A DNA stretch of 64,000 bases. Source: Halarcobacter sp. (GTDB taxonomy: Bacteria; Campylobacterota; Campylobacteria; Campylobacterales; Arcobacteraceae). The stretch covers positions 736,001 to 800,000 of the forward strand of contig CP182352.1 in the NCBI GenBank assembly GCA_048571215.1. The letters are read 5' to 3'. Position numbers and translations under genes: made by a program. A model generated the notes under the pieces. The model was not told where the DNA came from. It saw only the letters and a list, made by a program, of their open reading frames with translations, and ran no database searches. Shown one piece after another: positions 5,276 to 44,374 of the stretch. Position 1 is the first letter of the stretch. Each line of letters starts with the position of its first letter.

Positions 5276-5441
5276 AAACACAATTTAAATTTGCATCTTA
5301 GAAGTTTGCTTTTAACTTTTCTTTTCCCCTTGTATCTTACGGAAACTAAAAAGGAAATTTATTTTGTTTATTTTCCATAATTACTTTACTATAAGTTGCA
5401 ATTAATTACTATGGAGTAATTGATTTTTATAGGAAGAGTAG

Positions 5442-5960: not shown

Positions 5961-6225
5961 AGTTTAAGAACAAATCTTGCATAGCAATTTTTATGAGTAC
6001 CTATCCTTTATATTGCAATAATTGCAAAAAAAATTATAATGTTCGTAAAGAAGATTTAGAACTAATGAAAAAACATAACAAAGAGTTTGATGGAAAAGAG
6101 TATCTTAAAGGTTGTTTCTTTAAAGATTTAACAAATATCAAAAAATCAAAATCAAACTAATATATACAATATAAGTTTAAGAAGATATAATTTTCTTTGT
6201 TAAATATTATTATATGGATTAAAAA

Positions 6226-7633: not shown

Positions 7634-7665
7634 GTATTGATATGGATGAAATCTATTTTATATAA

Positions 7666-8901: not shown

Positions 8902-8967
8902 ATAGTATACATTAATTATTTTGTAAACTAATTAAATTGTAAACAATATAGTTATTATTTTGTAAAA

Positions 8968-9297
8968 TTAGTCTATTGTTTGTATATCTACAAGTTCTAT
9001 TTCAGCACAATCTTTTTTTGTAAGTTTCCTTGTTTTTGCATCCTCTTCTGCAAGTGATATTAAATCTGCAAAGTCATCTTTATTTACTTCAAACTGATAT
9101 AGCTCTTTTTGAGTTTCTATTTTTATTTTTGATTCATTCTCTTTTGTCAAAATATCAATATTTCTAATTCCCTTTGCAAATTCACTTTTTATAGTTTTTG
9201 CAACCTTTTCATTTGAAAGTAGTTTTTCTAAAGTAAGCTCTAAGTTGAAGTCATTTTTACATAATAATTTATATGTTACTATCATTTTCCCATCCAC
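8968..9297 (-). CDS. Hypothetical protein
   Basis: 109-aa ORF with AAGGA RBS. Confidence 0.7.
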   Translation of the reverse strand: MDGKMIVTYKLLCKNDFNLELTLEKLLSNEKVAKTIKSEFAKGIRNIDILTKENESKIKIETQKELYQFEVNKDDFADLISLAEEDAKTRKLTKKDCAEIELVDIQTID

Positions 9298-9412
9298 TTT
9301 TAATCCTTTTTATAAATTTTAGTACTTTGTTTTCTTATTTTTATAAATAGTATTTTATCAGTAAAAAATAGTGATATACAAAAATATTACAGATTGTAAT
9401 CAAATTATGATT

Positions 9413-10144
9413 TTAATCTATTTTATCATATTTAGCAAAATTGTTGTATTTAAGAACAGCAATTATTTTTTTAACGTATTCTTCCCCTTGTTCAGAATAA
9501 TTTGTAAGTTTTTTTGCTATCTCAATGGGATCATTAGTATAAAAGTTAGTTTTTTTAAATTCAAAATATATTTTTTTTGATGATAACATTTTATAATACT
9601 GTTTAATGGCATCTTCTATAGTTGCAAATTTTTTTAAGTAAATAGTTGTATCTTCCCTTTTTTCATATGCAGCAATTCGAGGTTCATTTTTATTAAATGA
9701 CCAAACACCAAAAACATTATTGGCTTCTTTTAAAAACCTTGAAGTTCCCCATGCACTTTCTATGGCTGCTTGTGATAAAGTTATACTTATTGGGTGGGGT
9801 TTTAAAGCTATTAAAAGATTTTCATTGGTTTTTACATTGTACTCTTTTTTAAGTTTATCAAGTTTTTCATTTGTAGGTTCTAGTTCTATTAGTTTTTTAG
9901 CTTCTAAAAAATTTTCATATAAGTTATCATATACCTTTGTAACTTTTGGAATAAAAAGTTTATCAAATCTTCTTTTTTTATCACTTACTAATATCTCTTT
10001 TTTCTTTTCTACTTTCTTAGGTTTTAACTCTTTTGTTTGTTTTATAGTACTTTTATTTATTTGGGTATAAGATAAGTATAGAGTAAAAAATAGTAATAAA
10101 ACAAGTATTAATTTTTCTTTTAATCCAATTTTTGTATTGTTCAT
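9413..10144 (-). CDS. Glucosaminidase-domain (GH73, Bax-like) protein
   Basis: LSQAAIESAWGTSRF, NNVFGVW, NYSE..Y motifs; N-terminal TM. Confidence 0.85.
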   Translation of the reverse strand: MNNTKIGLKEKLILVLLLFFTLYLSYTQINKSTIKQTKELKPKKVEKKKEILVSDKKRRFDKLFIPKVTKVYDNLYENFLEAKKLIELEPTNEKLDKLKKEYNVKTNENLLIALKPHPISITLSQAAIESAWGTSRFLKEANNVFGVWSFNKNEPRIAAYEKREDTTIYLKKFATIEDAIKQYYKMLSSKKIYFEFKKTNFYTNDPIEIAKKLTNYSEQGEEYVKKIIAVLKYNNFAKYDKID

Positions 10145-10199
10145 AAGTTAAAACCTTAATATCATTTTATAGATTATAAAGACTAGTTAAAGCTAGCCT

Positions 10200-12452: not shown

Positions 12453-12658
12453 CTATTAAACCCTTTGTCTTTGATACTTTTTTAAGGATGTATTTTATCA
12501 AATTAGTGCTTATATTAGAGGTTTCATAAAAGCTTTCGATTGTATTATTTACAATTATAATTGTAGTTTTGGTTTTTATATTAAATTTGTTTTTATTTTT
12601 TATATTGTATAAGATAATATATTACATAATTAATATTTTAAAATATGGGATAAATTTT

Positions 12659-13462
12659 ATGAAAAAAACCACACTACTTCTTATTGTATTTTTCTTTTTC
12701 TTTTCATTCTATATTGTATATGATAATTTTATTAAAAAAGGTTTTGTTTTTAATGATAGATATGTATATGATATAAATAATTTTGATACAAGTTCTTCAG
12801 ATATTAACTTAAAAGCTGGGAAAACATTGCAATTTAGATTTCATAATTCTTATGATGATGAGATTAGTATTTGTGAGTTGCATGTTCCAAAAAATTATAC
12901 AAAAAATAATGAGATACCAATATTTGTTTGGTTTGCCCCTGGCAATGGCTCTTATAGTGTAAAAAATGTACCTGCACTTGTTGATTTTGATGAATATTTT
13001 ATTTTAGCTTTACCATATTTAGATAATCAATTACCCCGTTTAGCTATCCAAGGTGGAAATATAGATCAGTTTTGGGAATACGATAGACCTATGTTTGAGT
13101 ATGTTATAGATAATATTCCTAATCTTAGTGAAGATGTAAGAATAGCAGCTGGATTTAGTAGTGGGGCACATTTTGTTTCTTCTGCCTTAGATAGGGATTG
13201 GATAGGATTTACTGATTTTTTCACAGGATATATTATCCATGAGGGTGGAGGTGCACCTGAAATGACATACAAAGGGATAAAACCATTTCATAAGATTCTT
13301 ATAACATATGGCGATAGTTATAATAGCTATGGAAAGTTGGTTGCAGATATGATGAAACAAGTACGTAAAGATATAACAGTATATGCAGTTCCTAACACAA
13401 AGCATCAATTAAATCCTCAATCAATAGAGTATATAAGAGAATGGATAAAAGAAACATTTTAA
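12659..13462 (+). CDS. Exported alpha/beta-hydrolase-fold protein
   Basis: N-terminal TM, GFSSG nucleophile elbow, late His (NTKH); ATG at 12659 preferred over track TTG at 12569. Confidence 0.6.
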   Translation: MKKTTLLLIVFFFFFSFYIVYDNFIKKGFVFNDRYVYDINNFDTSSSDINLKAGKTLQFRFHNSYDDEISICELHVPKNYTKNNEIPIFVWFAPGNGSYSVKNVPALVDFDEYFILALPYLDNQLPRLAIQGGNIDQFWEYDRPMFEYVIDNIPNLSEDVRIAAGFSSGAHFVSSALDRDWIGFTDFFTGYIIHEGGGAPEMTYKGIKPFHKILITYGDSYNSYGKLVADMMKQVRKDITVYAVPNTKHQLNPQSIEYIREWIKETF

Positions 13463-13481
13463 AAAATGCTTTAAATTATAA

Positions 13482-15488
13482 CTAATATGGTATGTAAGAT
13501 AACTCTATAAAAAACTTAGCACCTATTTTTGTATTTTTTACATATAAGTTTCCTTTTAGACTCTCTTTTATAATTTTATAACTCATATAGAGACCCAATC
13601 CAGTACCTTGTGATTTGTGTTTGGTTGTAAAATATGGTTCAAATATTTTATCAATTATTTTTTCATCTATACCACCTGCATTATCTTCAAATGTTATTAA
13701 TATCTTTTTTTTATTGATTTTTTTAATATTTAAATATATTTTAGGTTCTTCTATCTCTTTTTCTTTAAATACATCTTTTGCATTAGTTATTAAATTTATT
13801 ATAACTTGAGATAGTTCACCCTCAACAATATTTACAAAAATGGGTTCTATATCATCTAAATTATGCACAAGTTTAATATGGTTGTTTGTAAGTGTAGCTT
13901 TTAATAAATCAATAGATTTATAAATATTTTCTTGAAGAAATACTTTTTTATATACTTTTTCTTGTTTTATAAAGTTTCTAAATGTCTCAATTGTTTCAGA
14001 TAAATATTGTGCACTTTTATTAATCACTTCTAACTCTTCAAATAAAAGTTTATCGGATAAAATATTCATCTCTTTTTGTAGTTTAATTCCTGTTGATGCT
14101 GTACTAATTATACTTAGTGGTTGTCTCCATTGATGGGCAATATTTCCTATCATCTCACCCATAGAAGCCATTTTTGCTTGTTCTATAAGTTTTAGTTCAT
14201 GTTTTACATTTTTTTTAACTTCCAGTTGTATTTTTTCATTTAATGTATTATTTAAATCTGATAACTCTTTTGTTGTTACTGATACTAAGTTTGATAATGC
14301 TTTAATAGTCTGGATTTTTGCATTATTTTGAGGTTGTGAATAATCATCAATTTTAACTTTTATATCGCTTCTTTCACTTAAAGAAAGGATTGTCATTGTT
14401 TCATTAAAAAGTTGATTGAAATTTTTACCATTTTTATCTTTTTTATGAAAAAACTCTCCATATGTAAAAAAACCACTAACGGAAGCTAGTTTAGTAAGTG
14501 GAAATATTTCAGTCTCAATATTTTTACCTATTAAATGTTTTCTAGCCATACAAGAATAGATAAATAGTGATTCTATTGGGGTATTAGATAGTTCATGATA
14601 TAAACTATCTAAATTTTCTAAAATAAACTCAACATTTCCATAACCTAAGTATACTTTATCACCCACTTCAAAGTTACCTGCAAAGATTAGGGAACTATCT
14701 TCATTTTTCCCAATAGCAGCTCTTGCAATCATTTGATTATTTCTTGTTAAGATTAAAGGGAATTCAATCCCTGTCGAGGGGAGTTGATCTGAGATATCTT
14801 TCCCAAGATATTTATTATATATCTCATATGTTGGTATATTATCTATTGAGTATACAATATTTTCATTTGCACTAGTAACTACCATCTCTTTACCAATCTT
14901 TTCCCAGCCAAAATTGAATGTGGTATTTGCTATTAGGTTTTCTCCATAAAGTATCGCTGCAACTGCTCCTTTTTCAATGAAACCTTTATCTGTAAAAACT
15001 AAAGTTTCATCAAATTTTGCATTGTCACCTGCTAAGCCACCAGCAATTGTTAGATGATTTATTTCATCTTGAAAAGCTCTTAAAAACGTCTCACCATTTG
15101 TGTTGAGTCCATCAGCAAATATGATTGCAACTTTTGCCTTATTATTATTTGGTATTTTTTTTATTAAGTTAATTCCCATCTTATAACTTGATGGTTCATA
15201 TTCTATTTCAACTATTTCTATAGTTGATTTTTCAAACTGTGTAAATGATAAAATAATTTCATTAGAAGATACATTTTTATCTAAAATCTCACCATCTGTT
15301 GTAGTACCTATGATTTTATAATCTGGTAGTAGTTTTTTAATATTTTGTAAAACTTTTTCTATTTTATTTTTATTGATTTTTCCAGAAAATATTTGTAGTA
15401 AGCCATTATTTGTATTAATAATATTATTTAAGTTTATAAAATCTTCTAGATTCTTATAAGTAGTATATTTTGTATTATGCGTCTTCAA
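13482..15488 (-). CDS. FIST-domain sensor histidine kinase
   Basis: FIST motifs (GTTTDGEI, GGLAGD, YSCMAR, GFFTYGE), H-box NIAHQWRQPL, DNAGG, FTTK, GTGLGL. Confidence 0.92.
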   Translation of the reverse strand: MKTHNTKYTTYKNLEDFINLNNIINTNNGLLQIFSGKINKNKIEKVLQNIKKLLPDYKIIGTTTDGEILDKNVSSNEIILSFTQFEKSTIEIVEIEYEPSSYKMGINLIKKIPNNNKAKVAIIFADGLNTNGETFLRAFQDEINHLTIAGGLAGDNAKFDETLVFTDKGFIEKGAVAAILYGENLIANTTFNFGWEKIGKEMVVTSANENIVYSIDNIPTYEIYNKYLGKDISDQLPSTGIEFPLILTRNNQMIARAAIGKNEDSSLIFAGNFEVGDKVYLGYGNVEFILENLDSLYHELSNTPIESLFIYSCMARKHLIGKNIETEIFPLTKLASVSGFFTYGEFFHKKDKNGKNFNQLFNETMTILSLSERSDIKVKIDDYSQPQNNAKIQTIKALSNLVSVTTKELSDLNNTLNEKIQLEVKKNVKHELKLIEQAKMASMGEMIGNIAHQWRQPLSIISTASTGIKLQKEMNILSDKLLFEELEVINKSAQYLSETIETFRNFIKQEKVYKKVFLQENIYKSIDLLKATLTNNHIKLVHNLDDIEPIFVNIVEGELSQVIINLITNAKDVFKEKEIEEPKIYLNIKKINKKKILITFEDNAGGIDEKIIDKIFEPYFTTKHKSQGTGLGLYMSYKIIKESLKGNLYVKNTKIGAKFFIELSYIPY

Positions 15489-26870: not shown

Positions 26871-27482
26871 GTGGATAATCATATTTTAAAATTACCATTT
26901 ATTTTTGATAAGAAGAAACTAATAGAAGATTTATCACAAGTAAATGAATCTTTTTTGGTTAAACATCCAAATACTAATTATCCTACACCACTTTTTTCTA
27001 AGATGTCATATATACCAAAAATTTTAGAAAATTTTAAAACAAAAATTGAAGCAGTTAGATTTATGAATCTAAAAGCTAATTCTCAAATAAAAGAGCATTG
27101 CGATAGAGAATCCTATTTAGAAAAGGGGTTTATAAGAATTCATATTCCTATAAGTACTAACGAAAAGGTAAAATTTATACTTGATAGTATAGAAGAAAAG
27201 TTAGAACTAGGATGTTGTTATTATATAAATGCAGATAAACCTCATTGCATTGAAAACCTTGGAACAACGGACAGAATTCATTTACTTATAGATTGTAAAG
27301 TAAATGGTTGGCTTAAACAATTATTTTATAATCAAGGATTTGTAGAAGAGAAATCTCTTTATAATAATCATATCAGTGATGAAAATATAGATGATGTAAT
27401 CAAAAATCTAAAACTTATGAATACTATAGTACCAGATAAATTAATCAAAGATTTTGAAAAGATGAGAGATAGACAATGTTAA
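26871..27482 (+). CDS. Aspartyl/asparaginyl beta-hydroxylase-family Fe(II)/2OG oxygenase
   Basis: RFMNL..NSQIKEHCD (HxD), RIHIPI, PHCIEN distal His, DRIHLLID. Confidence 0.82.
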   Translation: MDNHILKLPFIFDKKKLIEDLSQVNESFLVKHPNTNYPTPLFSKMSYIPKILENFKTKIEAVRFMNLKANSQIKEHCDRESYLEKGFIRIHIPISTNEKVKFILDSIEEKLELGCCYYINADKPHCIENLGTTDRIHLLIDCKVNGWLKQLFYNQGFVEEKSLYNNHISDENIDDVIKNLKLMNTIVPDKLIKDFEKMRDRQC

Positions 27483-27964
27483 AAAACTTAAATAAAAATT
27501 TATTAGTAAAGGTAGAAACAAAAGAAGATGAAAATTTTTTATTTAAATTATTTTCTTCTACAAGAGAAGATGAATTGTCATTTCATAATATTTTACCAAA
27601 AGAGAAAAAGATTTTTTTAATGCAACAATTTAATGCAAGACAAAAAGATTTTAAAATCCGTTATGAAGATGCAAATTTTTTTATTATCAAACATAAGGAA
27701 AAAGATGTTGGAAGAATAGTTTATAAAATAGCACAAAAAATACAACTCATAGATATAGCATTAATATCAAAATCTAGAAATAAAGGTTTTGGCACTTATT
27801 TAATTCAAACTTTGATGAAAAAAGCACTTGAAACAAATCTTGAACTACATCTAAGTGTCGCAACCAATAATCCAAAAGCTTTTAAGTTATATAGAAGTTT
27901 AGGTTTTAAAATTATTTCGCAGGATATGATGTATATACAAATGGCATTTAATAAAAATAGCTAA
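27476..27964 (+). CDS. GNAT N-acetyltransferase
   Basis: DIAL...RNKGFGT acetyl-CoA motif, N.KAFKLYRSLGF; overlaps the upstream gene. Confidence 0.88.
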   Translation: MLKNLNKNLLVKVETKEDENFLFKLFSSTREDELSFHNILPKEKKIFLMQQFNARQKDFKIRYEDANFFIIKHKEKDVGRIVYKIAQKIQLIDIALISKSRNKGFGTYLIQTLMKKALETNLELHLSVATNNPKAFKLYRSLGFKIISQDMMYIQMAFNKNS

Positions 27965-27994
27965 ATCTTCTATTTAAGGTTTAGCTATTTTTAT
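27951..27994 (+). terminator. 15-bp-stem hairpin (terminator or mRNA-stability element)
   Basis: ataaaaatagctaaa ... tttagctatttttat perfect inverted repeat spanning the GNAT stop. Confidence 0.65.
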
Positions 27995-28037
27995 GCTCAT
28001 AGTAAATGTGTATAAAAATTTTTATTAAGGAGATGAT

Positions 28038-28562
28038 ATGGCAGATGCATATATTGGAGAGATAAGGTTATTTGCTGGTAATTATGCACCACGAGATTGG
28101 GCCTTATGCAATGGTAGTTTAGTTGCAGTAGTATATAATGAATCTTTATTTTCACTTTTAGGTACTGCATATGGTGGAGATGGAGTAAATAATTTTGCTC
28201 TTCCAGACTTTAGAGGTAGAGTTCCAATGCATTTTGGAACAGGTGTTGGCTTAACACCAAGAACAATTGGTAGAAAATTTGGTTATGAAATTGTAACTTT
28301 AAGTATTGATGAAATGCCACAACATAATCATAATCTAATGGCACAACCTGTAGATGCACATTTGAATGATCCACAAGATGCTTTTATAGCAAAAAGTTCG
28401 TCAGATTTTTATGATGATAATGCAGAAAAGAATCCCCCAGTTACATTGTCGGATGATGCTTTAATGAACAGCGGTCATAATGAAGCACATTCAAATATTC
28501 AACCATGTTTAGGCTTAAGTTTTATTATATGTTTAAGTGGTGAATATCCAAGTAGAAATTAA
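28038..28562 (+). CDS. Phage tail-collar domain protein 1 (MdpB-like)
   Basis: YIGEIRLFAGNYAPRDWALCNG..LFSLLGTAYGGDG.NNFALPDFRGR; C-terminal YPSRN. Confidence 0.9.
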   Translation: MADAYIGEIRLFAGNYAPRDWALCNGSLVAVVYNESLFSLLGTAYGGDGVNNFALPDFRGRVPMHFGTGVGLTPRTIGRKFGYEIVTLSIDEMPQHNHNLMAQPVDAHLNDPQDAFIAKSSSDFYDDNAEKNPPVTLSDDALMNSGHNEAHSNIQPCLGLSFIICLSGEYPSRN

Positions 28563-28572
28563 AGGAGATATT

Positions 28573-29103
28573 ATGGCAGACGCTTATATAGGGGAGATTA
28601 GATTACTTCCATATACTTATTCACCAAGATATTGGATGAGTTGTTCAGGTCAAACACTTCCTATTTTTGAATATTCAAAGTTATATAGTGTTATTAGTAC
28701 AACATATGGTGGTGATGGGGTAACAACTTTTGCACTTCCTAATTTATCTGGAAAATTACCAATTGGAACAGGGACAGGACCTGGTTTGAGTTCTCGTTAT
28801 CTTGGGCAAGGTGTTGGATCATCATCAGTTCAATTATCAGCTCTTCAGATACCAGAACATAACCATAAAATTGATAAAGTTTTTACCGATAGCCCTGTTC
28901 AAAATACACCAAGTAATTTAATGTATTTGGGGAAAATGAAAAAGAATAATTATTATAAAGAAGCAGTAACTACGGAGGAAGTTTATATGAGTAATAGTGC
29001 AGTTTCTAATACAGGGCAATCTGTAGCTCATGAAAATAGACAGCCTTCTTTGGCTTTGCAATATTGTATTTGCGTAGATGGTATTTATCCATCACGAAAT
29101 TAA
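28573..29103 (+). CDS. Phage tail-collar domain protein 2 (MdpB-like)
   Basis: YIGEIRL..YGGDGVTTFALPNL; YPSRN; AAGGAG RBS fixes start at 28573. Confidence 0.9.
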   Translation: MADAYIGEIRLLPYTYSPRYWMSCSGQTLPIFEYSKLYSVISTTYGGDGVTTFALPNLSGKLPIGTGTGPGLSSRYLGQGVGSSSVQLSALQIPEHNHKIDKVFTDSPVQNTPSNLMYLGKMKKNNYYKEAVTTEEVYMSNSAVSNTGQSVAHENRQPSLALQYCICVDGIYPSRN

Positions 29104-29114
29104 AAGGAGATATT

Positions 29115-29648
29115 ATGGCACAACCATTTATTGGCGAAATAAGAATGATGGGATTTGATTTTAATCCCAGAGATTGGGCTTTATGTGATGGGCAAATTTT
29201 CCCAATACAAAAGAATCCAGCACTTTTTAGTTTGTTAGGAAATACCTTTGGTGGTGATGGTATAAATACTTTTGCATTGCCAGATTTAAGAGGAAGGTCA
29301 CCTTTAGGTATAGGAACTTTTGGTTCTTCTCATTATTCCCAAGCAGATCAATGTGGAGTTGAATTAGTTAAACTTTTAGAAGCTAATCTACCTTGTCATT
29401 CTCATCAAATGTTAGCTACTAATTATGATGGTGATAGTAATAAAGCTATAAATAATAGTTCAATTTTAGCAAAATCAGACTATACAGGGCTTTTATACTC
29501 AAAGGATCCAAGTAGCTTAGTTAATTTGGCTGTAGATTCAGTTAGTATGGAAGGAGGTAATCAATTTCATTACAATATGCAACCTACACAAGTAATTAAT
29601 TTTTGTATTGCTTTAGAAGGACTTTATCCAAGTAGACCTTATATTTAG
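29115..29648 (+). CDS. Phage tail-collar domain protein 3 (MdpB-like)
   Basis: FIGEIRM..WALCDG..FGGDGINTFALPDLRGR; YPSRPYI; AAGGAG RBS fixes start at 29115. Confidence 0.9.
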   Translation: MAQPFIGEIRMMGFDFNPRDWALCDGQIFPIQKNPALFSLLGNTFGGDGINTFALPDLRGRSPLGIGTFGSSHYSQADQCGVELVKLLEANLPCHSHQMLATNYDGDSNKAINNSSILAKSDYTGLLYSKDPSSLVNLAVDSVSMEGGNQFHYNMQPTQVINFCIALEGLYPSRPYI

Positions 29649-29679
29649 AGGGAGAGTTCTCCCTCTAATGGTTTTTTTT
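29645..29679 (+). terminator. Terminator hairpin at convergent junction
   Basis: ttagagggaga-gt-tctccctctaa followed by tggttttttttt. Confidence 0.65.
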
Positions 29680-30424
29680 TATTTAATTCTGATGCATATT
29701 CAAAAAGTTTTAAATCATAATAGTTCTCTTGGTTTATTTGTTTTTTCATGCCATTATTTAATTTATAATGTTGTTTGATAAATTCAATTTTTTTTGTATG
29801 ATTTAATCCTTCTAAAGCATTTCCTTTATATCCAGTGACTCTTTTCTTTTCAAATGATGTAGGAAGATTCATAAGGTTAAAGAGTTTTGGTAAATCTTCA
29901 TCAAGTTTGTGGGTTAAAAGAATAAAGTCACATTTATCAAAAAGTTTTTTTGCTAACTCAAACTTTTCATTATCTGAAAAGTTAAGATTTATAGGCATTA
30001 GTTTTTTTGCATAAAAATTGCATATGAAGTTTCTATTTTTTACTTTATAAGTATTATTATACCAATCTTCAAAATTTTTTTTAATAATATTTTTACTTTT
30101 TTCAAAATTATATATTGAAACAATTTGATCTGCTGGACTTCTCATAATAGCAATATAATAAGGAGTTTTATTTATAAAATGTTTATGTATCCCATAATAT
30201 GTTTTATGACCACTAAGTACTTTAATTTTCTCTTTTTCAGAATTATCACGTTTTTCAAAATCTATACAATTGTTTTCTTTTCTATACTTTTCTCCCCAAT
30301 TTGCTAAATGTATAAATTCTTCATCCCATAGCAGATGCTTTTTGAAATGCCCATTTATTGTTGTTCCTCCAGATTTTCTTAAATGAAAGAAAATAAAAAG
30401 TTTATTGTTATTCAATGATTTCAT
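29645..30424 (-). CDS. Sulfotransferase (Sulfotransfer_2-like)
   Basis: FFHLRKSGGTTI 5'-PSB-like loop; MRSPADQIVSIY 3'-PB-like motif. Confidence 0.75.
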   Translation of the reverse strand: MKSLNNNKLFIFFHLRKSGGTTINGHFKKHLLWDEEFIHLANWGEKYRKENNCIDFEKRDNSEKEKIKVLSGHKTYYGIHKHFINKTPYYIAIMRSPADQIVSIYNFEKSKNIIKKNFEDWYNNTYKVKNRNFICNFYAKKLMPINLNFSDNEKFELAKKLFDKCDFILLTHKLDEDLPKLFNLMNLPTSFEKKRVTGYKGNALEGLNHTKKIEFIKQHYKLNNGMKKQINQENYYDLKLFEYASELNKKKPLEGELSL

Positions 30425-31217
30425 ATTTAAAATAATCCATAAGAGATTTATTTTTTATAAATATTTTATTTATGATTTTTATTTGTTCTTTGCTTAGTTT
30501 ATTAATTTGTTTTTGATTCATATTTGTAAGAGTTTCGTTGTATATACCTTTTACTAGAATTTTTTGTTTTAAGTTTATATCCTTTAGTTCTGGTAAAAAG
30601 TTTTTGATTTTGTTTTCAATTAAATCAGGTGTATCACACATTTGTTCATAGGTAAAAAATATACTGTTATCTTTAAATGTTTCAAGATTGCTTTTTTGAT
30701 ATTCAAAACATTTCATTATATGTTTTGCAGCAATCTCAAAGATATCTTCATTATCTTTACAGTTTTTTAATTTTCTTCTACTGATTCCTTCAACAACAGC
30801 ATAGGGGTTTCTTACCATAAATATAAAATAAGTATTAAAAAAATTTTGTTTGAGTTGATCTACTATTAGTAAAAAAGGTGGAGTTTTAGTAGTGAAAATT
30901 GATGCTATATTTGTTTTTGAAAAAGCTTGAAAATACCAAGCTTTTTTTGTTATTTTCCATGCATAAAGAGATTTATCTAAGAGTATATCTAGACTTTCTT
31001 TACTAGAAGCCCAGATTAAAGGTTTGTTGACTGTTTGGGTTGTTGGACCTTTATATCCATATATCCATTGAGCTTCTCTTTTTAGGTTCCAAGTGTTATT
31101 ACAAGTTTGTAGAATGTTTTCAAAAAAAGTTGATCCACTATTGTTGGGACAAATCAAAAAAAGATGTTTTTCAATTAACTTTTCAAGTTCAAATTGTGCT
31201 GATAGATATTTTTTCAT
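30408..31217 (-). CDS. Sulfotransferase (Sulfotransfer_3-like)
   Basis: CPNNSGSTFF loop, KTP, FIFMVRNPYAV, TYEQMC. Confidence 0.7.
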   Translation of the reverse strand: MKKYLSAQFELEKLIEKHLFLICPNNSGSTFFENILQTCNNTWNLKREAQWIYGYKGPTTQTVNKPLIWASSKESLDILLDKSLYAWKITKKAWYFQAFSKTNIASIFTTKTPPFLLIVDQLKQNFFNTYFIFMVRNPYAVVEGISRRKLKNCKDNEDIFEIAAKHIMKCFEYQKSNLETFKDNSIFFTYEQMCDTPDLIENKIKNFLPELKDINLKQKILVKGIYNETLTNMNQKQINKLSKEQIKIINKIFIKNKSLMDYFKYEIIE

Positions 31218-32089
31218 ATTTTATCTTTTGTTTGTTCTTTTATACTAAGATATTGAAAAGCTTCAGTATAGTTTTCTTGCCATAATTTGAAAAATTTTAA
31301 AAGTACAATATCTTTTTGTATTTTGAAAAAATAGTTTTTAAAACTCCATGGTTTTGCACCATTAAAATGTAAAACTTTTATCTTTTTTATATTTTTAGGA
31401 ATAAAATTATTTAACTCTTTTCTTCTATTTAGTAGACAATTGTATGTTATTGGAAGAAAATTTGTATGATTTTCTAAAAGTTTGTTAAATACTATTTGAT
31501 CAGTATATGGTTCTTTTATATTTTGCCAAAATTTATAATCAAGATATTCTAATGTTTTTTTAAAATATATTTGTGAAACAAAATGCTTTGGCAAATATAT
31601 AAGTCCAGCATTAAAAGTTTTGTTTAGATTGTTTTTATCATTTTGATTAAAAACTACATCAAAAGTTGTTTTGTCCCTTGAATATCCTAAATATTGTATA
31701 TATTCAGCACATACAAGTACTTTTTCTTTTTCTTCAAAAATTTCACTTATATTGCTATTAAAAAGTATATCACTATCACAAAATAATATATTGGAGTTTG
31801 TATTTAAATTAAAAAGCTCCAAAGAGTAAAATCTATTTTTTTTATGTTTTAAATTAGGAGATTTAGAAGTTAAGATATCAACAGCTAATTTTAAATTTTT
31901 TGAAATAGAATGAAAAATTATATTTGGGAAGTTTTTAAGTATATTTTGATTTTCTATACTTAGTTGATTATGTAAAATTATGATTTTACCTTTAAACGTT
32001 GAATTAAACTTTAAAAAAGAATGAATCATCACAATACTACCAGTGATAAAGTTGTCACTAGTAACTGTCACAAGAGAAAGTGGATTCAA
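31214..32089 (-). CDS. Glycosyltransferase family 8
   Basis: DSD (DxD), FNAGL, DQIVFN, YN, HFNGAKPW. Confidence 0.85.
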   Translation of the reverse strand: MNPLSLVTVTSDNFITGSIVMIHSFLKFNSTFKGKIIILHNQLSIENQNILKNFPNIIFHSISKNLKLAVDILTSKSPNLKHKKNRFYSLELFNLNTNSNILFCDSDILFNSNISEIFEEKEKVLVCAEYIQYLGYSRDKTTFDVVFNQNDKNNLNKTFNAGLIYLPKHFVSQIYFKKTLEYLDYKFWQNIKEPYTDQIVFNKLLENHTNFLPITYNCLLNRRKELNNFIPKNIKKIKVLHFNGAKPWSFKNYFFKIQKDIVLLKFFKLWQENYTEAFQYLSIKEQTKDKI

Positions 32090-32106: not shown

Positions 32107-32280
32107 TTAAGAATAATCTGCTATTCCATCAGATTGGCGGCTATTATTTGCATATGTTACAGTTTTTGTTATATCTGAAATTGTACCAAGTGATTTGAAC
32201 TCAGGTGAATGATATTCTTTTAATAGACTTTTATCATTTTGTTCTTTTTTTGCTTCTGTTATATTTTTATTATCTTTCAT
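32107..32280 (-). CDS. Lasso-type RiPP precursor peptide (57 aa)
   Basis: Not in ORF track. Manual translation MKDNKNITEAKKEQNDKSLLKEYHSPEFKSLGTISDITKTVTYANNSRQSDGIADYS*; YxxPxFxxxGxxxxxTx leader; AAGGA RBS; ATGA overlap with PqqD stop. Confidence 0.88.
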   Translation of the reverse strand: MKDNKNITEAKKEQNDKSLLKEYHSPEFKSLGTISDITKTVTYANNSRQSDGIADYS

Positions 32281-32552
32281 TTTATATCCTTTTTAAGTAA
32301 TAAGTTTTTATCATTTAATCTATTTATTAGATTATTAATATCTTCATCTAGTCTTTTTTCTGAAGTATCATAAACCATTAAGAGTTCTTGGATCACTTCT
32401 TCTTGATTTAATCCTTTTTGAAAGAGTTCAATAATCTCAGAACCAACTTTATCTAAAGAAAAATACTCTTCTGTTTGAAGATCTAACAAAATTGTGTCTT
32501 CGTTTAGTTTTTGTATTATTACATCTTCTTTAAAGCTAAGAATTTCTGACAT
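32277..32552 (-). CDS. PqqD-family RiPP recognition element (lasso B1/E-like)
   Basis: 91 aa; ILLDL..EEYFSLDKVGSEIIELF, YD...LDEDI..LI..L...NLL pattern. Confidence 0.88.
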   Translation of the reverse strand: MSEILSFKEDVIIQKLNEDTILLDLQTEEYFSLDKVGSEIIELFQKGLNQEEVIQELLMVYDTSEKRLDEDINNLINRLNDKNLLLKKDIK

Positions 32553-32648: not shown

Positions 32649-34493
32649 ATGAATTCAATTTTTGGAATCTTTACTACTAACTCCAATCTTATAAGAGAAA
32701 ATACAAATGGTAAATTTCATAATAATTTTAAATATTCCATTGAGACATATTTAGATGAAAATATCCTATTAAAAAAAACTTTTCGTAATAAAAAATATAC
32801 TCAAAAATTAATAGAAAAAAATAATATTATCTTAATAGGCAAAATAAGGGTTTATAATAAAAATGAATTAATTAATCAATTTAATTTAAAAAATCAAGAC
32901 TCTTCATCTAATGAATTATTTCTAATAACCCTATATTTAAAACTTGGAAAAGATTTTATAAAGTATCTTAAAGGGCATTGGAGTGTTGCTTTATGGGATA
33001 AAAGTAAAAGAGAATTGTTTTTATCAAGAGATGATTCAATACAAACAAATCTTTATTATTATTGGGATAAAAACTTATTTATTTTTTCAAGTAATCTAAG
33101 AGCTATTTTAGATATTAAGTATATAAATAAAGAATTAAATAAACAGGCGATATATTCTTATAGTGGAATTCCAAATGATAATCAAACTTTATATAAAAAT
33201 ATTTTTGAATTAACTTCATCATCTTTTATTCAAATTGGTTTAAATCAAACTATGAAAATCTCAAATTATGAGTCTTTTAATAAAATAAAAAAAATTGAAT
33301 ATGACACAACTGAACAATATATAAATAAATTTATTAAAGTTTATAACTTTGCAATTGAAAATTGTATTAAAAATTATGATAATATAGCTTCCACCTTAAG
33401 TTCTGGTTTGGATTCAGGTTCAATCACAACATTGGCTTCAAAAATACTTGAAGAGAAACAAAAAAAACTTTACAGTTATAGTTTTGTATCAACTTATGAA
33501 ACAGAAAGTATAAGTAAAAATAGATTTTCTGATGAAACTCAAGGGATAAAAAAAATACTAGCTACTTTAAATAATGTTGAATCAAAAATTTTAAAAAATA
33601 CTAATCTTTCATATGTTGATGCTTTTAATTTAAATTTAGATCTATTAGGACAACCTTTAGGAACTGCTAATATAGATAATTGTCTTAATATGGTATCAGA
33701 ATCAAAAAATGATAACATGGATATTTTGTTGATAGGGCAAAATGGAAATTTCACTATATCTTATCAAGGAGATTATGGATATTATTTAAATAGTTTGTTA
33801 AAAGGTTTTAAGTTTTCTGAGTATTTCAATAATCTTTTTAAAGAAGATAAATATTTAAAGAATTTATATTTACAAATTTCTAATTTAAATTTTATACATC
33901 ATTTAATACATAAAAAACATAAGAAAAAAATTGATAAAACAAGCTTTATAAATAAAAATTATCTTAATTTGAATAAAGTAAGTTCCAATAACCCTGAAAA
34001 AGAGTTTTTAGTTAGGTTAACCATTTTTAAACACCATAAACACTTAATAAAAAATAAATATAAATGGAATGAGTGGGGAGAACTTTTAGGAATTGAAATA
34101 CAAGACCCTACAACCAATATAGACTTAGTAAATTTTTGTTATGGCATACCTGAAAATCAATATATAGACAAATACAATGAAAAACTTTTGATTAAAAATG
34201 CAATGAAAGATTTAATGCCAAAAGAGATTTTATGGGCAAAAAAAAGGGGACAACAATCAGCTGATTTAATTGAAAAATTTAAACAACAAGAGGAACAAAT
34301 AGGGGATAATTTATCTATGATATTTAACTCAACTTTATGTAAAGAGTATCTTGATATTAATGGTTTAGAAAATACTTTTTTAAATTTAAATACTTCTTTA
34401 GATAGGAAAAAACTTTTTGAAAACTGCTATCAATTATTACGTGCATTACATTATGGAATGTTTTTATTAAGACTTGAAAGGAATTGTGTTTGA
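32649..34493 (+). CDS. Asparagine-synthetase-like protein, putative lasso cyclase
   Basis: LSSGLDSGSI ATP-pyrophosphatase loop; lacks N-terminal Cys (MNSIFG); GQNGNFTISY, DPT..DLVNFC.GIP, KRGQQSAD. Confidence 0.82.
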   Translation: MNSIFGIFTTNSNLIRENTNGKFHNNFKYSIETYLDENILLKKTFRNKKYTQKLIEKNNIILIGKIRVYNKNELINQFNLKNQDSSSNELFLITLYLKLGKDFIKYLKGHWSVALWDKSKRELFLSRDDSIQTNLYYYWDKNLFIFSSNLRAILDIKYINKELNKQAIYSYSGIPNDNQTLYKNIFELTSSSFIQIGLNQTMKISNYESFNKIKKIEYDTTEQYINKFIKVYNFAIENCIKNYDNIASTLSSGLDSGSITTLASKILEEKQKKLYSYSFVSTYETESISKNRFSDETQGIKKILATLNNVESKILKNTNLSYVDAFNLNLDLLGQPLGTANIDNCLNMVSESKNDNMDILLIGQNGNFTISYQGDYGYYLNSLLKGFKFSEYFNNLFKEDKYLKNLYLQISNLNFIHHLIHKKHKKKIDKTSFINKNYLNLNKVSSNNPEKEFLVRLTIFKHHKHLIKNKYKWNEWGELLGIEIQDPTTNIDLVNFCYGIPENQYIDKYNEKLLIKNAMKDLMPKEILWAKKRGQQSADLIEKFKQQEEQIGDNLSMIFNSTLCKEYLDINGLENTFLNLNTSLDRKKLFENCYQLLRALHYGMFLLRLERNCV

Positions 34494-35380
34494 ATTATTA
34501 TTATGCTTATAATTTTGTTTTTAAATCAGAACTAGAAATACCAGAGTTAGAAGTTTGTGAAAATAAAGATTATGATGTAGAGATTAGGTTTGACTCAATT
34601 AATTATGATTTTGATAAATTTAAGAAAAATAGAATATGGAAAACAAAAGATAATTATTTTGTATTAAAAGTTAAAAATATAGGTATATTTTTAGTAAAAG
34701 ATGCAAATACAATTATTATAGATTGTTTTGAAAATACAAAAGAAGAAGATTTACGCTTTGTGTTATTGGGTTCTGTTTTTGCTGCTTTATTACAGCAAAA
34801 AAAACTTTTAACTTTGCATGCTGGGTGTGTTAAAGTAGATAACAATAATTGTATTTTATTTATAGGACCATCAGGTTATGGTAAATCAACTTTGACAACT
34901 GCATTTTCTAATTTAGACTATGAAATTCTTTCTGATGATGTTGTAGCTTTAGATATAAAAGAGAAACAAATCAGTATTCCACCTTCATTTCCTAAGCTAA
35001 GACTATGGAAAGATTCTGCAAAACAATTAAAGTTAAACTATGAAAGTTTTTCTACGTCAAGAGTTGGTTTAAAAAAGTATATGATTCCAATTCCTAGATT
35101 TTGTAAAACAAAACTAAATTTAAAAAAAATATATCTTTTAAATGTATATAATAAAGATGAAATTATCTTAGAAGAGTTAAACGGTGCACAAAAAATAAAA
35201 GCTTTGATTGACAATACTTATCGTATTAAATTTTTATCTGGAATGAAACTTATAAAGAATCATAATACTCAGATTTTAAAAGTATGTTCACAAATTGATA
35301 TTGTAAAAATTACTAGACCTTTAAATGTTTTTTTAATTGATGAATTGATTGAAAAGATACAAAAAGATTTATTAAAATGA
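34484..35380 (+). CDS. HPr-kinase-like peptide kinase
   Basis: LHAG, GPSGYGKST Walker A, LSDD. Confidence 0.82.
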   Translation: MCLNYYYAYNFVFKSELEIPELEVCENKDYDVEIRFDSINYDFDKFKKNRIWKTKDNYFVLKVKNIGIFLVKDANTIIIDCFENTKEEDLRFVLLGSVFAALLQQKKLLTLHAGCVKVDNNNCILFIGPSGYGKSTLTTAFSNLDYEILSDDVVALDIKEKQISIPPSFPKLRLWKDSAKQLKLNYESFSTSRVGLKKYMIPIPRFCKTKLNLKKIYLLNVYNKDEIILEELNGAQKIKALIDNTYRIKFLSGMKLIKNHNTQILKVCSQIDIVKITRPLNVFLIDELIEKIQKDLLK

Positions 35381-36204
35381 AAAAGATTTATTGGTTGGCC
35401 TCTTACCCTAAGTCTGGAAATACTTGGTTAAGAGCACTATTAACATCTTATTTTAGCAATGCTGACTTTAATATAAATCAATTGTTGGGAAATAATTTTA
35501 TATCAAGAAATGAATTTGATGATTGGCTTGGTTTAGAATCATCTGATTTAAAAGAGAGTGAAATTACTATGTATCGGCATTATTACTATTTGGATATTGC
35601 TGCAAATCTAGATAAAATAATATTTATAAAAGTTCATGATTTAAACAGATTAACAATAGAAAATAAAGAGTTATTTCCAAACACAATAACAAAAGGAACT
35701 ATCTATCTAGTTAGAAACCCTTTAGATATTGCAGTATCTTATGCACATCACGAAAATTGTAGTTTAGATGAGATTATAAAAAAGATGAATGATACTAATG
35801 CTTTTCTATTGCCCTATACTGAAAAGTTAAAATTATCATTGCCCCAAAAATTATCATCTTGGAATGAACATGTAAAAAATTGGAAAGAAAAAGATAATAT
35901 TAAAATTGTTAGATATGAAGATATGGTTTTAGATACAAAAAATGTTTTTATGGGGATTCTTACATTTATGGGGTTTGAAATTGATGAAAAGAAGATAGAT
36001 AAGGCAGTAGATTTATCAAGTTTTGAGCATCTTAAAAAACAAGAACAAAATTATGGTTTTGTAGAACGATCTGCAGAAGCTAGTTCTTTTTTTAGATCAG
36101 GAAAAATTGGTGAAGGAAGAAAAATCTTAACTAAACAACAAATAAAAAAGATTATTGATAAAAACTATGAAATGGTAGAATATTTTGGGTATTTAAAAGG
36201 TTAA
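35377..36204 (+). CDS. PAPS-dependent aryl/tyrosyl-type sulfotransferase (Sulfotransfer_1)
   Basis: WLASYPKSGNTW, KVH, YLVRNPLDIAVS, RYEDM, FFRSGKIG. Confidence 0.9.
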   Translation: MKKIYWLASYPKSGNTWLRALLTSYFSNADFNINQLLGNNFISRNEFDDWLGLESSDLKESEITMYRHYYYLDIAANLDKIIFIKVHDLNRLTIENKELFPNTITKGTIYLVRNPLDIAVSYAHHENCSLDEIIKKMNDTNAFLLPYTEKLKLSLPQKLSSWNEHVKNWKEKDNIKIVRYEDMVLDTKNVFMGILTFMGFEIDEKKIDKAVDLSSFEHLKKQEQNYGFVERSAEASSFFRSGKIGEGRKILTKQQIKKIIDKNYEMVEYFGYLKG

Positions 36205-36206
36205 TA

Positions 36207-37025
36207 TTGGATAATAAAATTGATAAAATAGAATTTGTTAAGCAGCTTAAAAAAAGTGAATCAAAATTTTTTGTTTCTAGTAGGTTTTTAGATGAAGATA
36301 TGGATTTAGATATTTATTTGAAGTTTTTTTATCCATATTTAAGGTTAGAGCAAATAGAGTCAATATATGGGTTTGCATTACAATTAAGTAGTTTATATGG
36401 GGGACGTTCATATAAAAAAGGAACTTTAGCAACAAAGAAACATTTAAATCAATTAAAAAAGTTGAATATAAATTTTTCATTAACTTTAACTAATCATTAC
36501 TTTAGTGATGAAGCTTTTGAAGAAAGTTTTGAGTTGTTAGAGTATTTACATAAACATGGAAATTCAATTACTGTTACAAATAATAAACTTGTAAAAAAGA
36601 TTAAAGAGTTTTTTCCTTTATTTACTTATAAAGCAAGTTTGATTAAACATCTTGATAGTTTAGAAAAAGTTAATAATGCTTTGAAAATATATGATTATAT
36701 AGTGGTTCCAATGGATAAAAATGATGATGATATTTTTTTAAATTCATTGCCATATAAAGAGAGAATAATTCTTTTTATAAATGCAAATTGTGCTTATAAT
36801 TGTCCTTCAAGAATTTGCTATACTTCAATTAGTAAAAGTTTATCAAATAGACAAGATAGTTCAAATTTTGATTGTTCTATTTATAATATTCCACGCAAAA
36901 ATTTGGGACATATATTTTTCAATCTTAAAAAGTTTGAGAATATGGGATTCTCAAACTTTAAATTAGTTCCTCAATATAGTGAAAAGCTTATTGGTATGGT
37001 AAGAAATTTTTCAAAAAAGAATTAA
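36207..37025 (+). CDS. Cys-rich hypothetical protein, possibly U32-family-like
   Basis: LYGGR, NFSLTLTN, KASLIK, CAYNCPSRIC and a further Cys; TTG start, AAAGG RBS. Confidence 0.45.
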   Translation: MDNKIDKIEFVKQLKKSESKFFVSSRFLDEDMDLDIYLKFFYPYLRLEQIESIYGFALQLSSLYGGRSYKKGTLATKKHLNQLKKLNINFSLTLTNHYFSDEAFEESFELLEYLHKHGNSITVTNNKLVKKIKEFFPLFTYKASLIKHLDSLEKVNNALKIYDYIVVPMDKNDDDIFLNSLPYKERIILFINANCAYNCPSRICYTSISKSLSNRQDSSNFDCSIYNIPRKNLGHIFFNLKKFENMGFSNFKLVPQYSEKLIGMVRNFSKKN

Positions 37026-42988: not shown

Positions 42989-44374
42989 TTATTTTAAGTT
43001 AGTAAAAATATCATTTATATCTTTTTCAGATAACTTTGATAACAAAGCTTTTTTCCAAATGGGATTTTCTATTTTATTTATAGGAGTAAATTTATAATCC
43101 CCTTTATAAAGGTTTATCTTCGGGCTGTTTGGTTTATAATCAAAGATTATAGGTGGTTTTGTTTTATCGAAATAGTATGCTAAAACTATATTTTCATTTA
43201 TTTTTTTATTTTTTATTTTTAGGGAAGTGTTTTTTTTGATAATTTTAAATTTTGTATTATCAAAACCTAGTTTAGAAAGTATTAGTAGTTTAAGTAAAGC
43301 AAATTCTTCCGTATCTCCAGCTCCTGTACCAATAAATTCTAAAGGAGTAGCCCAATAATTATTTTTATTCCAATGTACCTTATCTTCTAAAAAGTATATT
43401 TTATTTACTAGCAAATTTGTAGCTCGTAATTTATTTGCTGGTTTAGGTAGAGCATTTATTTTATCAAGATATTTGTTTATATAGTTAAATCTAAACAAAG
43501 CTCTATTTCCATATCTTCTAGTATATAAATCCAAGGTTTTTCTAGGAAGTTTTATTGTTGTACCAGTTTTAAGGATATTCTTTTGAATCTTTTTATTATC
43601 TTTTGGTTTTATTCCTTTTGATAATAAATAGTTTCTAATATTTTCTAATTCAGATGAATTTTTCTTAACTATAACTATGGTATTTACACTGTATGTTTTT
43701 ATATCTTTATCTAGAAAAGCATAATCTTTTTTAGAGAGTGTATCTATTTTAATATCAGGATTATCTTTAATTGGAATATTTGATTCAAGAAGTCTAAGGT
43801 TTTTATATTTTGACAAGAGCTTTGATGGTGCTTTTGTTACATAAAATACTGCGTCAATTTTATTCTTAGATAATAAATCTAAACCTTTTTCTATACTTGT
43901 ATTAACAACTTCTCCAAAATTTATTTTATATTGTTCTTCAACAAATGTAGCAGTAACACTACTACCACTTTTTTTACTTCCATAACTTACTTTTTTACCA
44001 TCTAATTGTTTTATTGACTTGATTTTAGAATTTTTATTTACTAATATATGTAGATGTTCAGTATATAAATATCCTACAATATCAACTAAATCGTATTTAT
44101 TTAGATTATCAATTTGATAAATAATATCTAACATTGATAAGGCATCTTCTTGAACTAAGGCTATGTCAGCTTTACCATCTGCAACCAAAAGCATATTTTC
44201 AACGGAACCAGATGTTTTTAAAAGTTTGGCTTTGTTTTTATAAACTTTTGAATTTATCTCTTTGCCTATCTTATAATAGTTACCAGTATCTTCACCAGTT
44301 GCAATAGTTACATCATTTGAGTAAACAATTGAAACAATAAAGATTAGTAGTGTAAGTAAGTGTTTCATTTTCAA
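42989..44374 (-). CDS. TAXI-type solute-binding domain fused to an inactive LapG-like (BTLCP) domain
   Basis: IATG..TGNYY, TSGSVEN, LYTEHLHI, KSGS (TAXI); ED..HW...NYWATPLEF...GAGDTEEFALLK (BTLCP). Confidence 0.78.
   Translation of the reverse strand: MKMKHLLTLLIFIVSIVYSNDVTIATGEDTGNYYKIGKEINSKVYKNKAKLLKTSGSVENMLLVADGKADIALVQEDALSMLDIIYQIDNLNKYDLVDIVGYLYTEHLHILVNKNSKIKSIKQLDGKKVSYGSKKSGSSVTATFVEEQYKINFGEVVNTSIEKGLDLLSKNKIDAVFYVTKAPSKLLSKYKNLRLLESNIPIKDNPDIKIDTLSKKDYAFLDKDIKTYSVNTIVIVKKNSSELENIRNYLLSKGIKPKDNKKIQKNILKTGTTIKLPRKTLDLYTRRYGNRALFRFNYINKYLDKINALPKPANKLRATNLLVNKIYFLEDKVHWNKNNYWATPLEFIGTGAGDTEEFALLKLLILSKLGFDNTKFKIIKKNTSLKIKNKKINENIVLAYYFDKTKPPIIFDYKPNSPKINLYKGDYKFTPINKIENPIWKKALLSKLSEKDINDIFTNLK

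Follow-up and report, generated by a model that had tools for sequence, protein, structure and literature searches.

Which peptide is the substrate of a lasso-type biosynthetic island in the genome of a Halarcobacter sp. (assembly GCA_048571215.1, contig CP182352.1)? The genome consists of a single 3.61-Mb contig (C1), and the 64,000-nucleotide (nt) stretch analysed here, which we call the window, is C1:736001-800000. An earlier note on this DNA had singled out a short minus-strand open reading frame (ORF) as a lasso precursor gene and as the source of the island's likely substrate. The substrate proposal is supported. The position of the ORF, its leader motif, a C-terminal Ser encoded next to an HprK-like kinase, and similarly built precursors in sister and related loci make it the best and sole candidate, and we regard its product as probably the peptide on which the cluster acts. 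We mildly favour the reading that the ORF is an A gene, encoding the precursor, within a lasso cluster of the kinase/sulfotransferase type, together with the full pathway set out below; that the peptide becomes a true macrolactam or lasso has, in our estimate, just under an even chance. The leader-core boundary implied by the earlier note is not supported, and its interpretation as a whole is thus partly supported.

A short gene between the PqqD-family and GT8 genes

The candidate gene and its parts are listed here (aa, amino acids; RRE, recognition element of RiPPs, which are ribosomally synthesized peptides that are post-translationally modified).

32107..32280, minus strand: precursor peptide gene (A), 57 aa plus stop; the sole ORF called in the gap between the PqqD and GT8 genes (ORF listing)
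32287..32291, minus strand: AAGGA ribosome-binding site, 6 nt before the precursor ATG
32197..32214, minus strand: codons of Y23-H-S-P-E-F28, the putative RRE-binding leader motif, fitting [Y/W]xxPx[L/V/I/F/A]
32152..32280, minus strand: predicted leader, residues 1-43, taken to end T42-Y43
32110..32151, minus strand: predicted 14-aa core ANNSRQSDGIADYS, with a ring from A44 to D51, then G52, Tyr56 and the C-terminal Ser57

The ORF listing returned the same 57-aa minus-strand ORF and the same translation that the earlier note had given, and the start signals it described are both in place: AAGGA stands at 32287-32291, and ATGA at 32280-32277 is formed by the ATG (32280-32278) and the overlapping TGA (32279-32277) that ends the 91-aa PqqD ORF. 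The precursor gene is presumably translationally coupled to the PqqD-family RRE gene directly upstream. It takes up 174 of the 187 nt from the PqqD stop to the GT8 start, which follows 17 nt past the precursor stop. At 57 aa the ORF falls under a 60-aa ORF-list threshold and is "hidden" to such lists only; a public protein collection already contains an identical protein (P0001), which occurs on 3 contigs. A promoter scan was uninformative, with 59 sites against 62.7 expected.

Pieces of the locus also occur in one public RNA-library (metatranscriptome) run (X1) that, as contigs, holds 0.10 of the sampled words. A 339-letter contig of this run spans 32146-32479, across the PqqD/ORF junction, with three differing letters, which indicates that a near-identical locus exists in another sample. 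Differences at 32258 (G>A) and 32261 (A>G), given for the plus strand, swap Ile7 and Thr8 by codon reading. The contig places pieces of the locus in an RNA library, where DNA carry-over is possible, and is not proof of transcription.

Could an ORF of this size be a chance product of an intergenic spacer, with no functional peptide translated from it? When this AT-rich 201-nt stretch (24% GC locally) was shuffled, an ORF of at least 57 aa appeared in 52 of 5000 cases (about 1%), the mean longest ORF being 29 aa; the two contig differences that swap I7 and T8 are both non-synonymous; and the searches described below found no homologue anywhere and a family profile score that is not significant. 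The start signals speak against chance, with the ribosome-binding site at ideal spacing and the ATGA overlap, and so does composition: the peptide is hydrophilic (grand average of hydropathy, GRAVY, -1.17), unlike the spurious ORFs of this AT-rich genome, which are rich in Phe, Leu and Ile. The leader motif, Thr, Asp-Gly, Tyr and terminal Ser moreover occur together at the usual position of an A gene. We consider a chance ORF very improbable.

Leader motif and leader-core boundary

The earlier note had aligned the peptide with the lasso leader consensus YxxPxLxxxGxxxxxTx, reportedly from the RODEO study (YxxPxLx3Gx5Tx). Y23, P26, F28, G32 and T38 do sit at the positions claimed, and the pattern match is exact. 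The leader end that this match implies fared differently. With the leader ending at T38-K39, the motif takes the place reported for YxxPxL, -17 to -12 (PMC10368454), but the core starts at T40 and its first Asp falls at position 12, so that a lasso ring of 7-9 members is impossible. The segment Y23-H-S-P26-E-F28 also satisfies the leader motif class defined as [Y/W]xxPx[L/V/I/F/A] (PMC13381572).

Where, then, would a lasso-type core begin? In a scan of boundaries, T40-V41|T42 puts an Asp at position 10 and gives a ring of 10, and T42-Y43|A44 is the sole boundary that combines Thr at -2 with an Asp or Glu at 7-9, the ring running over eight residues from A44 to D51. If Thr stands at -3 instead, Y43 (ring of 9) or N45 (ring of 7) could open the core. 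We prefer A44 because its distance from Thr to acceptor matches that of most family members, and on sequence grounds we place the boundary at Y43|A44 tentatively, with less than even confidence. The peptide ends S-D-G-I-A-D-Y-S.

A partly similar case is BsfA of Bradymonas sediminis (PMC10368454), which shares with the window peptide a Tyr-type YxxPxL leader, a discrete B1 protein and kinase, and a non-standard leader end. As reported there, BsfA has Ile at -2, an indication that precursors of this class can depart from the boundary rules; its YxxPxL motif spans -17 to -12 of the core start, the ring is closed between Gly1 and Asp8, and Ser3, within that ring, is the residue on which the kinase acts (PMC10368454). 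Unlike BsfA, the window peptide cannot combine the -17 spacing with a legal ring.

Gene neighbourhood of the window locus

The genes around the precursor form two divergent arms.

32277..32552, minus strand: PqqD-family RRE (lasso B1), 91 aa; PF05402 at E 9.6e-12, lasso_PqqD models at E 1e-11, below cut-off
31214..32089, minus strand: GT8 glycosyltransferase (domain scan)
30408..31217, minus strand: sulfotransferase (Sulfotransfer_3, domain scan), with homologues in related loci L024/L036 and L033
29645..30424, minus strand: sulfotransferase (Sulfotransfer_2/1, domain scan), the last gene of the minus-strand operon
29645-29668: terminator-like hairpin closing the minus-strand arm
32649..34493, plus strand: Asn-synthase-like putative macrolactam (lasso) cyclase, 614 aa, divergent; Asn_synthase and GATase_7 domains
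34484..35380, plus strand: HprK-like kinase; HprK_rel_A at E 8e-8, 28-34% identity to the kinases of related loci
35377..36204, plus strand: sulfotransferase (Sulfotransfer_1), in the conserved kinase-sulfotransferase-U32-like cassette; 35-41% identity in related loci
36207..37025, plus strand: 272-aa U32-like protein with no Pfam or NCBIfam family; modelled U32-peptidase-like fold
26871..29648, plus strand: Asp/Asn beta-hydroxylase-like gene, GNAT gene and three tandem tail-collar-domain genes (domain scan)

The minus arm carries PqqD, A, GT8 and two sulfotransferases, and the plus arm the cyclase, kinase, sulfotransferase and U32-like genes, the cyclase start lying 96 nt beyond the PqqD start on the opposite strand. 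None of the nine genes is disrupted, and they are packed so tightly that starts and stops overlap. The precursor gene lies beside the RRE (B1) gene, with the Asn-synthase-like cyclase gene next in line, where a lasso A gene is expected, and an HPr-kinase homologue in the cluster is paired with a precursor ending in Ser57, as expected of the kinase type. The RRE profile matches TbiB1 (5v1u) at E 2.8e-16, and the best NCBIfam match of the cyclase is lass_lactam_cya (E 1e-54, 186 bits against a cut-off of 525). True glutamine amidotransferases start with an N-terminal Cys; the window cyclase begins MNSIFG, with no N-terminal Cys, and its SSGLDS loop is intact. The gene group at 26871..29648 is probably part of the same conserved island as the lasso cassette. 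Further along the window, 42989-44374 (minus strand) encodes a 461-aa NMT1-like periplasmic-binding-type protein with a match to PF06035, the bacterial transglutaminase-like cysteine proteinase (BTLCP) family, of 24.7 bits, under the cut-off of 27.

HprK homologues are described as phosphorylating the C-terminal Ser of linear lasso precursors, and kinase-type precursors as sharing little beyond that Ser; sulfotransferase genes were noted beside such clusters, with their role unassigned in this 2021 review (PMC8498205). Like the systems of paeninodin (PadeA/PadeK), ThcoA/ThcoK and SyanA/SyanK (PMC8498205), the window locus combines a PqqD-type RRE, an Asn-synthase-like cyclase, an HPr-kinase homologue and a terminal Ser. 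Unlike them it is without a B2 peptidase and ABC exporter, places its Tyr 21 residues before the ring-compatible core, adds three sulfotransferases, a GT8 and a U32-like protein, and has a precursor with no sequence similarity to any other precursor. Kinase-type lasso clusters, the C-terminal Ser rule and neighbouring unexplained sulfotransferase or glycosyltransferase genes are already in print, and an A gene turning up in such a cluster is routine. The window locus departs from the known kind in three ways: its precursor is Tyr-type, with a long spacer and no homologue, in a family that is otherwise Trp-type; it has neither B2 nor exporter of its own; and its tailoring set comprises three sulfotransferases, GT8 and the U32-like protein.

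Precursors of sister loci and of the wider cassette family

The same genome holds two sister lasso loci. Locus 2 (L011, C1:2134000-2149000; 4301-15001) is a complete kinase-type lasso locus with PqqD, B2 (PF13471, 70 bits), an ABC transporter, DUF218, NTP_transf_5 and a Mutator-family transposase, along with a 539-aa U32-like/sulfotransferase fusion, an HprK-like kinase, a sulfotransferase, a cyclase and a 51-aa Trp-type precursor (L011 13667-13822) ending ...WEIPAIEVLDTDETKVGAPGPFDGSGPYS. Locus 3 (L016, C1:600000-618000; 4523-10108) is partly decayed, with PqqD, kinase, precursors and cyclase. Its intact precursor has 39 aa (L016 6259-6378, ...WIKPEVKELDVNKTANATSVNSDGSLLS), and a second precursor-like ORF (L016 7767-7955) continues for 62 aa past a core that offers no ring acceptor; of B2 a remnant is left, interrupted by stops and a frameshift (L016 about 4853-5131). 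A GDSL lipase lies between these two precursor ORFs, and a SPASM/radical-SAM protein is encoded nearby (12556-13353). The sister precursors have the same build as the window peptide, ending in Ser and with S/F-D-G after the ring. They match each other at about E 2e-4 (BLASTP), and the two sister RREs share 69% identity, against 26-28% with the window RRE.

A composite pattern (aromatic-xx-P-x-hydrophobic, T-x, Asp/Glu at 7-9, C-terminal Ser), drawn up post hoc when these three peptides were already known, selects 3 of the 20,968 small ORFs of the genome: the window ORF and the precursors of the two sister loci, and no others. A terminal Ser with a Tyr among the last six residues is found in 407 of the 20,968 (1.9%).

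The window cassette also has relatives well beyond this genome. A search with a two-sequence alignment, of the 272-aa U32-like protein and its paralogue, the 52% identical N-terminal half of the locus-2 539-aa sulfotransferase protein, returned related loci from species genomes (11) and metagenomes (16) at 40-49% identity. Named records come from Desulfuromonadota, Desulfobacterota, Planctomycetota, Acidobacteriota, Bacteroidota and Zetaproteobacteria. Most of the loci share the order of window 34484-37025, that is kinase, Sulfotransfer_1 and U32-like, then the cyclase, with PqqD nearby, and the U32-like domain is usually fused to a second sulfotransferase domain. Identity to the window cassette is 28-34% for the kinase, 35-41% for the sulfotransferase and 40-49% for the U32-like protein, and a GT8 homologue occurs in metagenome locus L035 (34% identity, E 1.9e-48).

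Do these loci encode peptides of the same kind? A family pattern that leaves the C-terminus free (aromatic-xx-P-x-hydrophobic, Thr 8-11 residues further on, Asp/Glu at ring distance) matched 31 distinct ORFs among the 4,018 small ORFs of the 27 loci. Trp-type sequences account for 21 of them; every one of these has a C-terminal Ser, and in 18 a Tyr falls within the last six residues. The remaining ten, Phe- or Tyr-type, are located within other genes or are hydrophobic; none ends in Ser, and they are chance matches. Like the window peptide, the Trp-type precursors (loci 2 and 3, L022-L048) thus combine aromatic-xx-P-x-hydrophobic, Thr, a ring Asp/Glu often followed by Gly, a Tyr near the end and a terminal Ser with the same enzyme cassette. 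The family Trp stands at -15 or -16, and 10 of the 13 precursors examined in detail have Trp at -15, Thr at -2 and a ring of 7-9; the L030 precursor requires Thr at -3, and those of L024 and L025 are compatible with neither Thr position. An Asp-Gly following the ring is also seen in loci 2 and 3, L030, L043, L045 and L047. The L030 precursor ends S-D-G-A-S-T-Y-S, and its distance from K-T to S-D-G equals that of the window peptide.

Some other features of these loci may be recorded here. In L048, five tandem, partly overlapping Trp-type precursor genes, all ending Y-K-[ST]-G-S, lie at 1806-2845 on the plus strand and adjoin one kinase/sulfotransferase/U32-like set. As in the window, a GNAT gene and three tandem phage-tail-collar-domain paralogues stand beside the lasso cassette in L022, L023, L028, L034, L039, L043, L045 and L046, from other phyla; L043 also has a homologue of the Asp/Asn beta-hydroxylase-like protein, and L026 and L035 hold a collar fragment only. 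A U32-like homologue of 48% identity is encoded at 10001-10696 of L027, from a Sulfurimonadaceae metagenome-assembled genome, with no kinase, sulfotransferase, PqqD or cyclase detected within 10 kb, which indicates that the domain occurs outside lasso contexts too.

Isolation of the peptide and of its locus

Several results weigh against reading the ORF as a lasso A gene. Conservation, which the earlier note had put forward as a check, was not found in 40 relatives, by word search, by phmmer or with the family profile. The word search, over 5.8 billion proteins, matched the peptide to itself alone. Against 1,835,955,588 proteins, phmmer returned the peptide itself and one repeat-like match in a 1113-aa protein (E 2.2e-4); in the relatives the best match had E 0.057, with every match inside long frames; and BLASTP against the sister precursors gave E 1.2 and 9-13. 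In a leave-one-out profile of 13 family precursors the peptide scored 8.1 bits (E 2.7, rank 5 of 20,968), and an unrelated ORF (window 12089-12178) outranks it. The 1113-aa protein (P0010) shows 37% identity to precursor residues 20-50 in five of its stretches, and the match is probably repeat-derived or compositional.

Spacing and enzymes add to these points. All 21 pattern-matching family precursors are Trp-type, and the window peptide, with its Tyr at -21 if the ring-compatible boundary holds, is the sole Tyr-type, long-spacer member seen, its spacer six residues longer than that of the family. YxxPxL is reported to span -17 to -12 of the core start (PMC10368454); A44 as core start puts Tyr23 at -21 and not at -17, and the Y(-17) spacing yields a core without Asp or Glu at 7-9. 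Both the window cyclase and the RRE score far under the NCBIfam cut-offs. Neither a B2 peptidase (PF13471) nor an ABC exporter was found among the window ORFs scanned (13.5-48 kb), and the sole intact lasso-type B2 of the genome lies at C1:2138547-2139002, 1.37 Mb from the window locus. That B2 counts as the only intact one because the locus-3 copy is decayed and a weak second PF13471 match (L002), rejected as a B2, is a generic PF01841 transglutaminase-core protein in a housekeeping context.

The locus as a whole is equally isolated. An orthologue search with the window RRE returned only itself, the closest cyclase among the 5.8 billion proteins is 29% identical, the cyclase homologues P0003-P0007 ranging over 26-29%, and a search of genome contigs with the cyclase alone gave zero related loci. 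Within the genus 1 of 25 genomes has a lasso-type cyclase (the match in G010 is a weak Asn-synthase-like one), and among 400 other genomes of the order a cyclase match at E 1e-25 turned up in 3, weak in every case. The GC content is 21-25% around the locus and 28.5% genome-wide. The locus looks horizontally acquired, without a close relative on record.

Such rarity and low GC are also what a relic might display, that is, a former precursor in an incomplete, horizontally acquired locus that has neither protease nor exporter and yields no mature product now. The visible decay of locus 3, with its stops and frameshift in B2 and its second precursor that reads through, and the presence of one intact B2 for three loci point the same way. 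Set against them is the condition of the window locus, in which all nine genes are intact and closely packed, with overlapping starts and stops; the pieces in RNA-library contigs argue weakly in the same direction, and an Asn/Asp pair in the sister RREs, discussed below, makes processing in trans conceivable. We regard a relic as distinctly unlikely.

Leader recognition and a linear alternative

The earlier note had also proposed that the RRE binds the YHSPEF segment. A predicted complex of RRE and precursor, made with a 3-row RRE alignment, scored 0.55 in three runs against 0.01 for the best control; the runs agree in at least 80% of contacts, the partner has a predicted local distance difference test (pLDDT) value of 56, and no contacts were reported. 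Of 157 solved complexes 116 pass the mark used for such scores, and of 215 mismatched pairs 2 do; scores that pass at 0.60 or less comprise only 18 of the 157 solved complexes and both of the passing mismatches. Since similar RRE-leader complexes have been solved (5v1u/5v1v, 9x90, 9x8z), the pass may reflect mere likeness, and the prediction favours the proposed binding weakly.

In Bacillota, RREs are reported to separate the Tyr-type leaders of linear polyphosphorylated peptides (LPPs) from the Trp-type leaders of paeninodin-like lasso peptides, so that co-resident pathways do not interfere; a Tyr-reading RRE has Asn and Asp where a Trp-reading RRE has Gly and Gln (PMC13381572). We aligned the RREs to 9x8z_B and 9x90_B, with an 18-residue numbering offset inferred from the residues named in that paper. 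At the two positions the sister (Trp-type) RREs carry Asn and Asp; in the window RRE they are Asp34 and Asp71. The signature of the published Tyr/Trp discrimination is absent, Gly/Gln not occurring in the Trp-type RREs here, and the RREs of this genome give that mechanism no support. The Asn/Asp pair is linked to relaxed Tyr/Trp binding (PMC13381572), so the sister RREs may be permissive; the window peptide could conceivably be processed in trans by the locus-2 RRE and B2.

LPPs also supply the main rival to the lasso reading. The RRE would present the peptide to the kinase, sulfotransferases and GT8, and the product would be a tailored linear analogue of an LPP; the leader would be cut by a protease other than B2, for example after T38, or remain uncut, and no macrolactam would form. 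LppA, described in 2026, has the same spacing of 15 from Tyr to Thr (Y23 to T38 in the window peptide) and coexists with Trp-type lasso systems in one genome (PMC13381572). Y23, P26, F28, I34 and T38 correspond to positions 1, 4, 6, 12 and 16 of the LPP leader consensus YxxPxVLxHQxIxFET, which is followed by xxS, and the LPP leader ends at that Thr (PMC13381572). A linear product would also suit the canonical spacing, which leaves the ring acceptor missing, and a window locus without B2. A missing local B2 is common in the cassette family: of the 11 genome loci, 4 show a B2 no more than 10 kb away, as do 4 of the 16 metagenome loci, a group with many short contigs, and Pfam scans of L022, L025 and L030 (ORFs of at least 100 aa) found none.

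The agreement with LPP leaders is partial, however, with L7, H9, Q10, F14, E15 and the Ser at +3 all differing; where LPPs have the Ser that their kinases modify, the window peptide, counted from T38, has Val. LPP clusters, described as restricted to Bacillota, have a signal-peptidase-I-like leader peptidase, a nucleoside triphosphate (NTP) transferase and an exporter, and no cyclase (PMC13381572). None of this trio was found among the window ORFs scanned, and the locus does have an Asn-synthase-like cyclase, full-length, with an intact SSGLDS loop, and divergent 96 nt from the RRE gene. S-D-G and the terminal Y-S of the window peptide align with the lasso-type cores of the family. We judge a linear tailored peptide unlikely.

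A proposed pathway

The ORF, its coupling signals, its neighbourhood and the family-wide build of the precursors are observed, and from them we infer each biochemical step of the lasso pathway that we prefer. The RRE would bind the leader at Y23-H-S-P-E-F28, and Ser57 would, by comparison with the family, receive its phosphate while the precursor is linear. Further groups would come from GT8 and at least one of the three sulfotransferases, with Tyr56 as the best candidate for sulfation. The conservation of Tyr suggests this site, as does locus 3, which is without a sulfotransferase and without a Tyr in the precursor tail, an anecdote drawn from three loci. Bacterial RiPPs with sulfated Tyr exist, for example RaxX. 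Cutting off the leader, most likely after T42-Y43, would fall to the lone intact B2 1.37 Mb away or to another protease, and the Asn-synthase-like cyclase would then join the A44 N-terminus to the D51 side chain, giving an 8-residue ring in a 14-residue product. We hold this closure, following leader removal in trans, to be possible, at somewhat short of an even chance.

What might the U32-like protein contribute? Members of the U32 family include Fe-S hydroxylases as well as proteases, and the 272-aa protein could be an alternative leader protease or a hydroxylase feeding the sulfotransferase. Its Atlas model has template-modelling (TM) scores of 0.87 to the N-terminal half of 549-aa sulfotransferase proteins, 0.74 to Peptidase_U32 clusters and 0.73 to a 428-aa PqqD-containing cluster. 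The domain is fused to a sulfotransferase domain in locus 2, L022, L025 and L030, and to PqqD according to the Atlas, and the Cys pattern N-A-N-C-A-Y-N-C...R-I-C...C is kept between the protein and its paralogue.

A more ambitious picture, which we think unlikely to hold in every part, joins these elements. The window peptide would be the dedicated substrate of a Tyr-reading RRE, in a third pathway kept apart from the two Trp-type pathways, and would mature into a ring peptide of 14-15 residues with phospho-Ser57, sulfo-Tyr56 and perhaps a sugar; its leader would be cut by the distant B2 in trans or by the U32-like protein, and the cluster would act with the neighbouring tail-collar triplet. 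In the literature covered, from which subscription journals were largely absent, we found no sulfated lasso peptide, no U32-like enzyme in lasso biosynthesis, no report of a modification set of this type for lasso peptides, and no study characterising the kinase/sulfotransferase/U32-like cassette.

Implications

Naming the substrate makes the island testable, as one short peptide and nine enzymes. The conserved Tyr near the terminal Ser offers a concrete hypothesis for a sulfation site, and the window cluster belongs to a widespread kinase-sulfotransferase-U32-like cassette represented by 27 loci from many phyla. Within its own genome, a Tyr-type peptide alongside two Trp-type systems is a natural test case for the idea of leader discrimination put forward in 2026 (PMC13381572).

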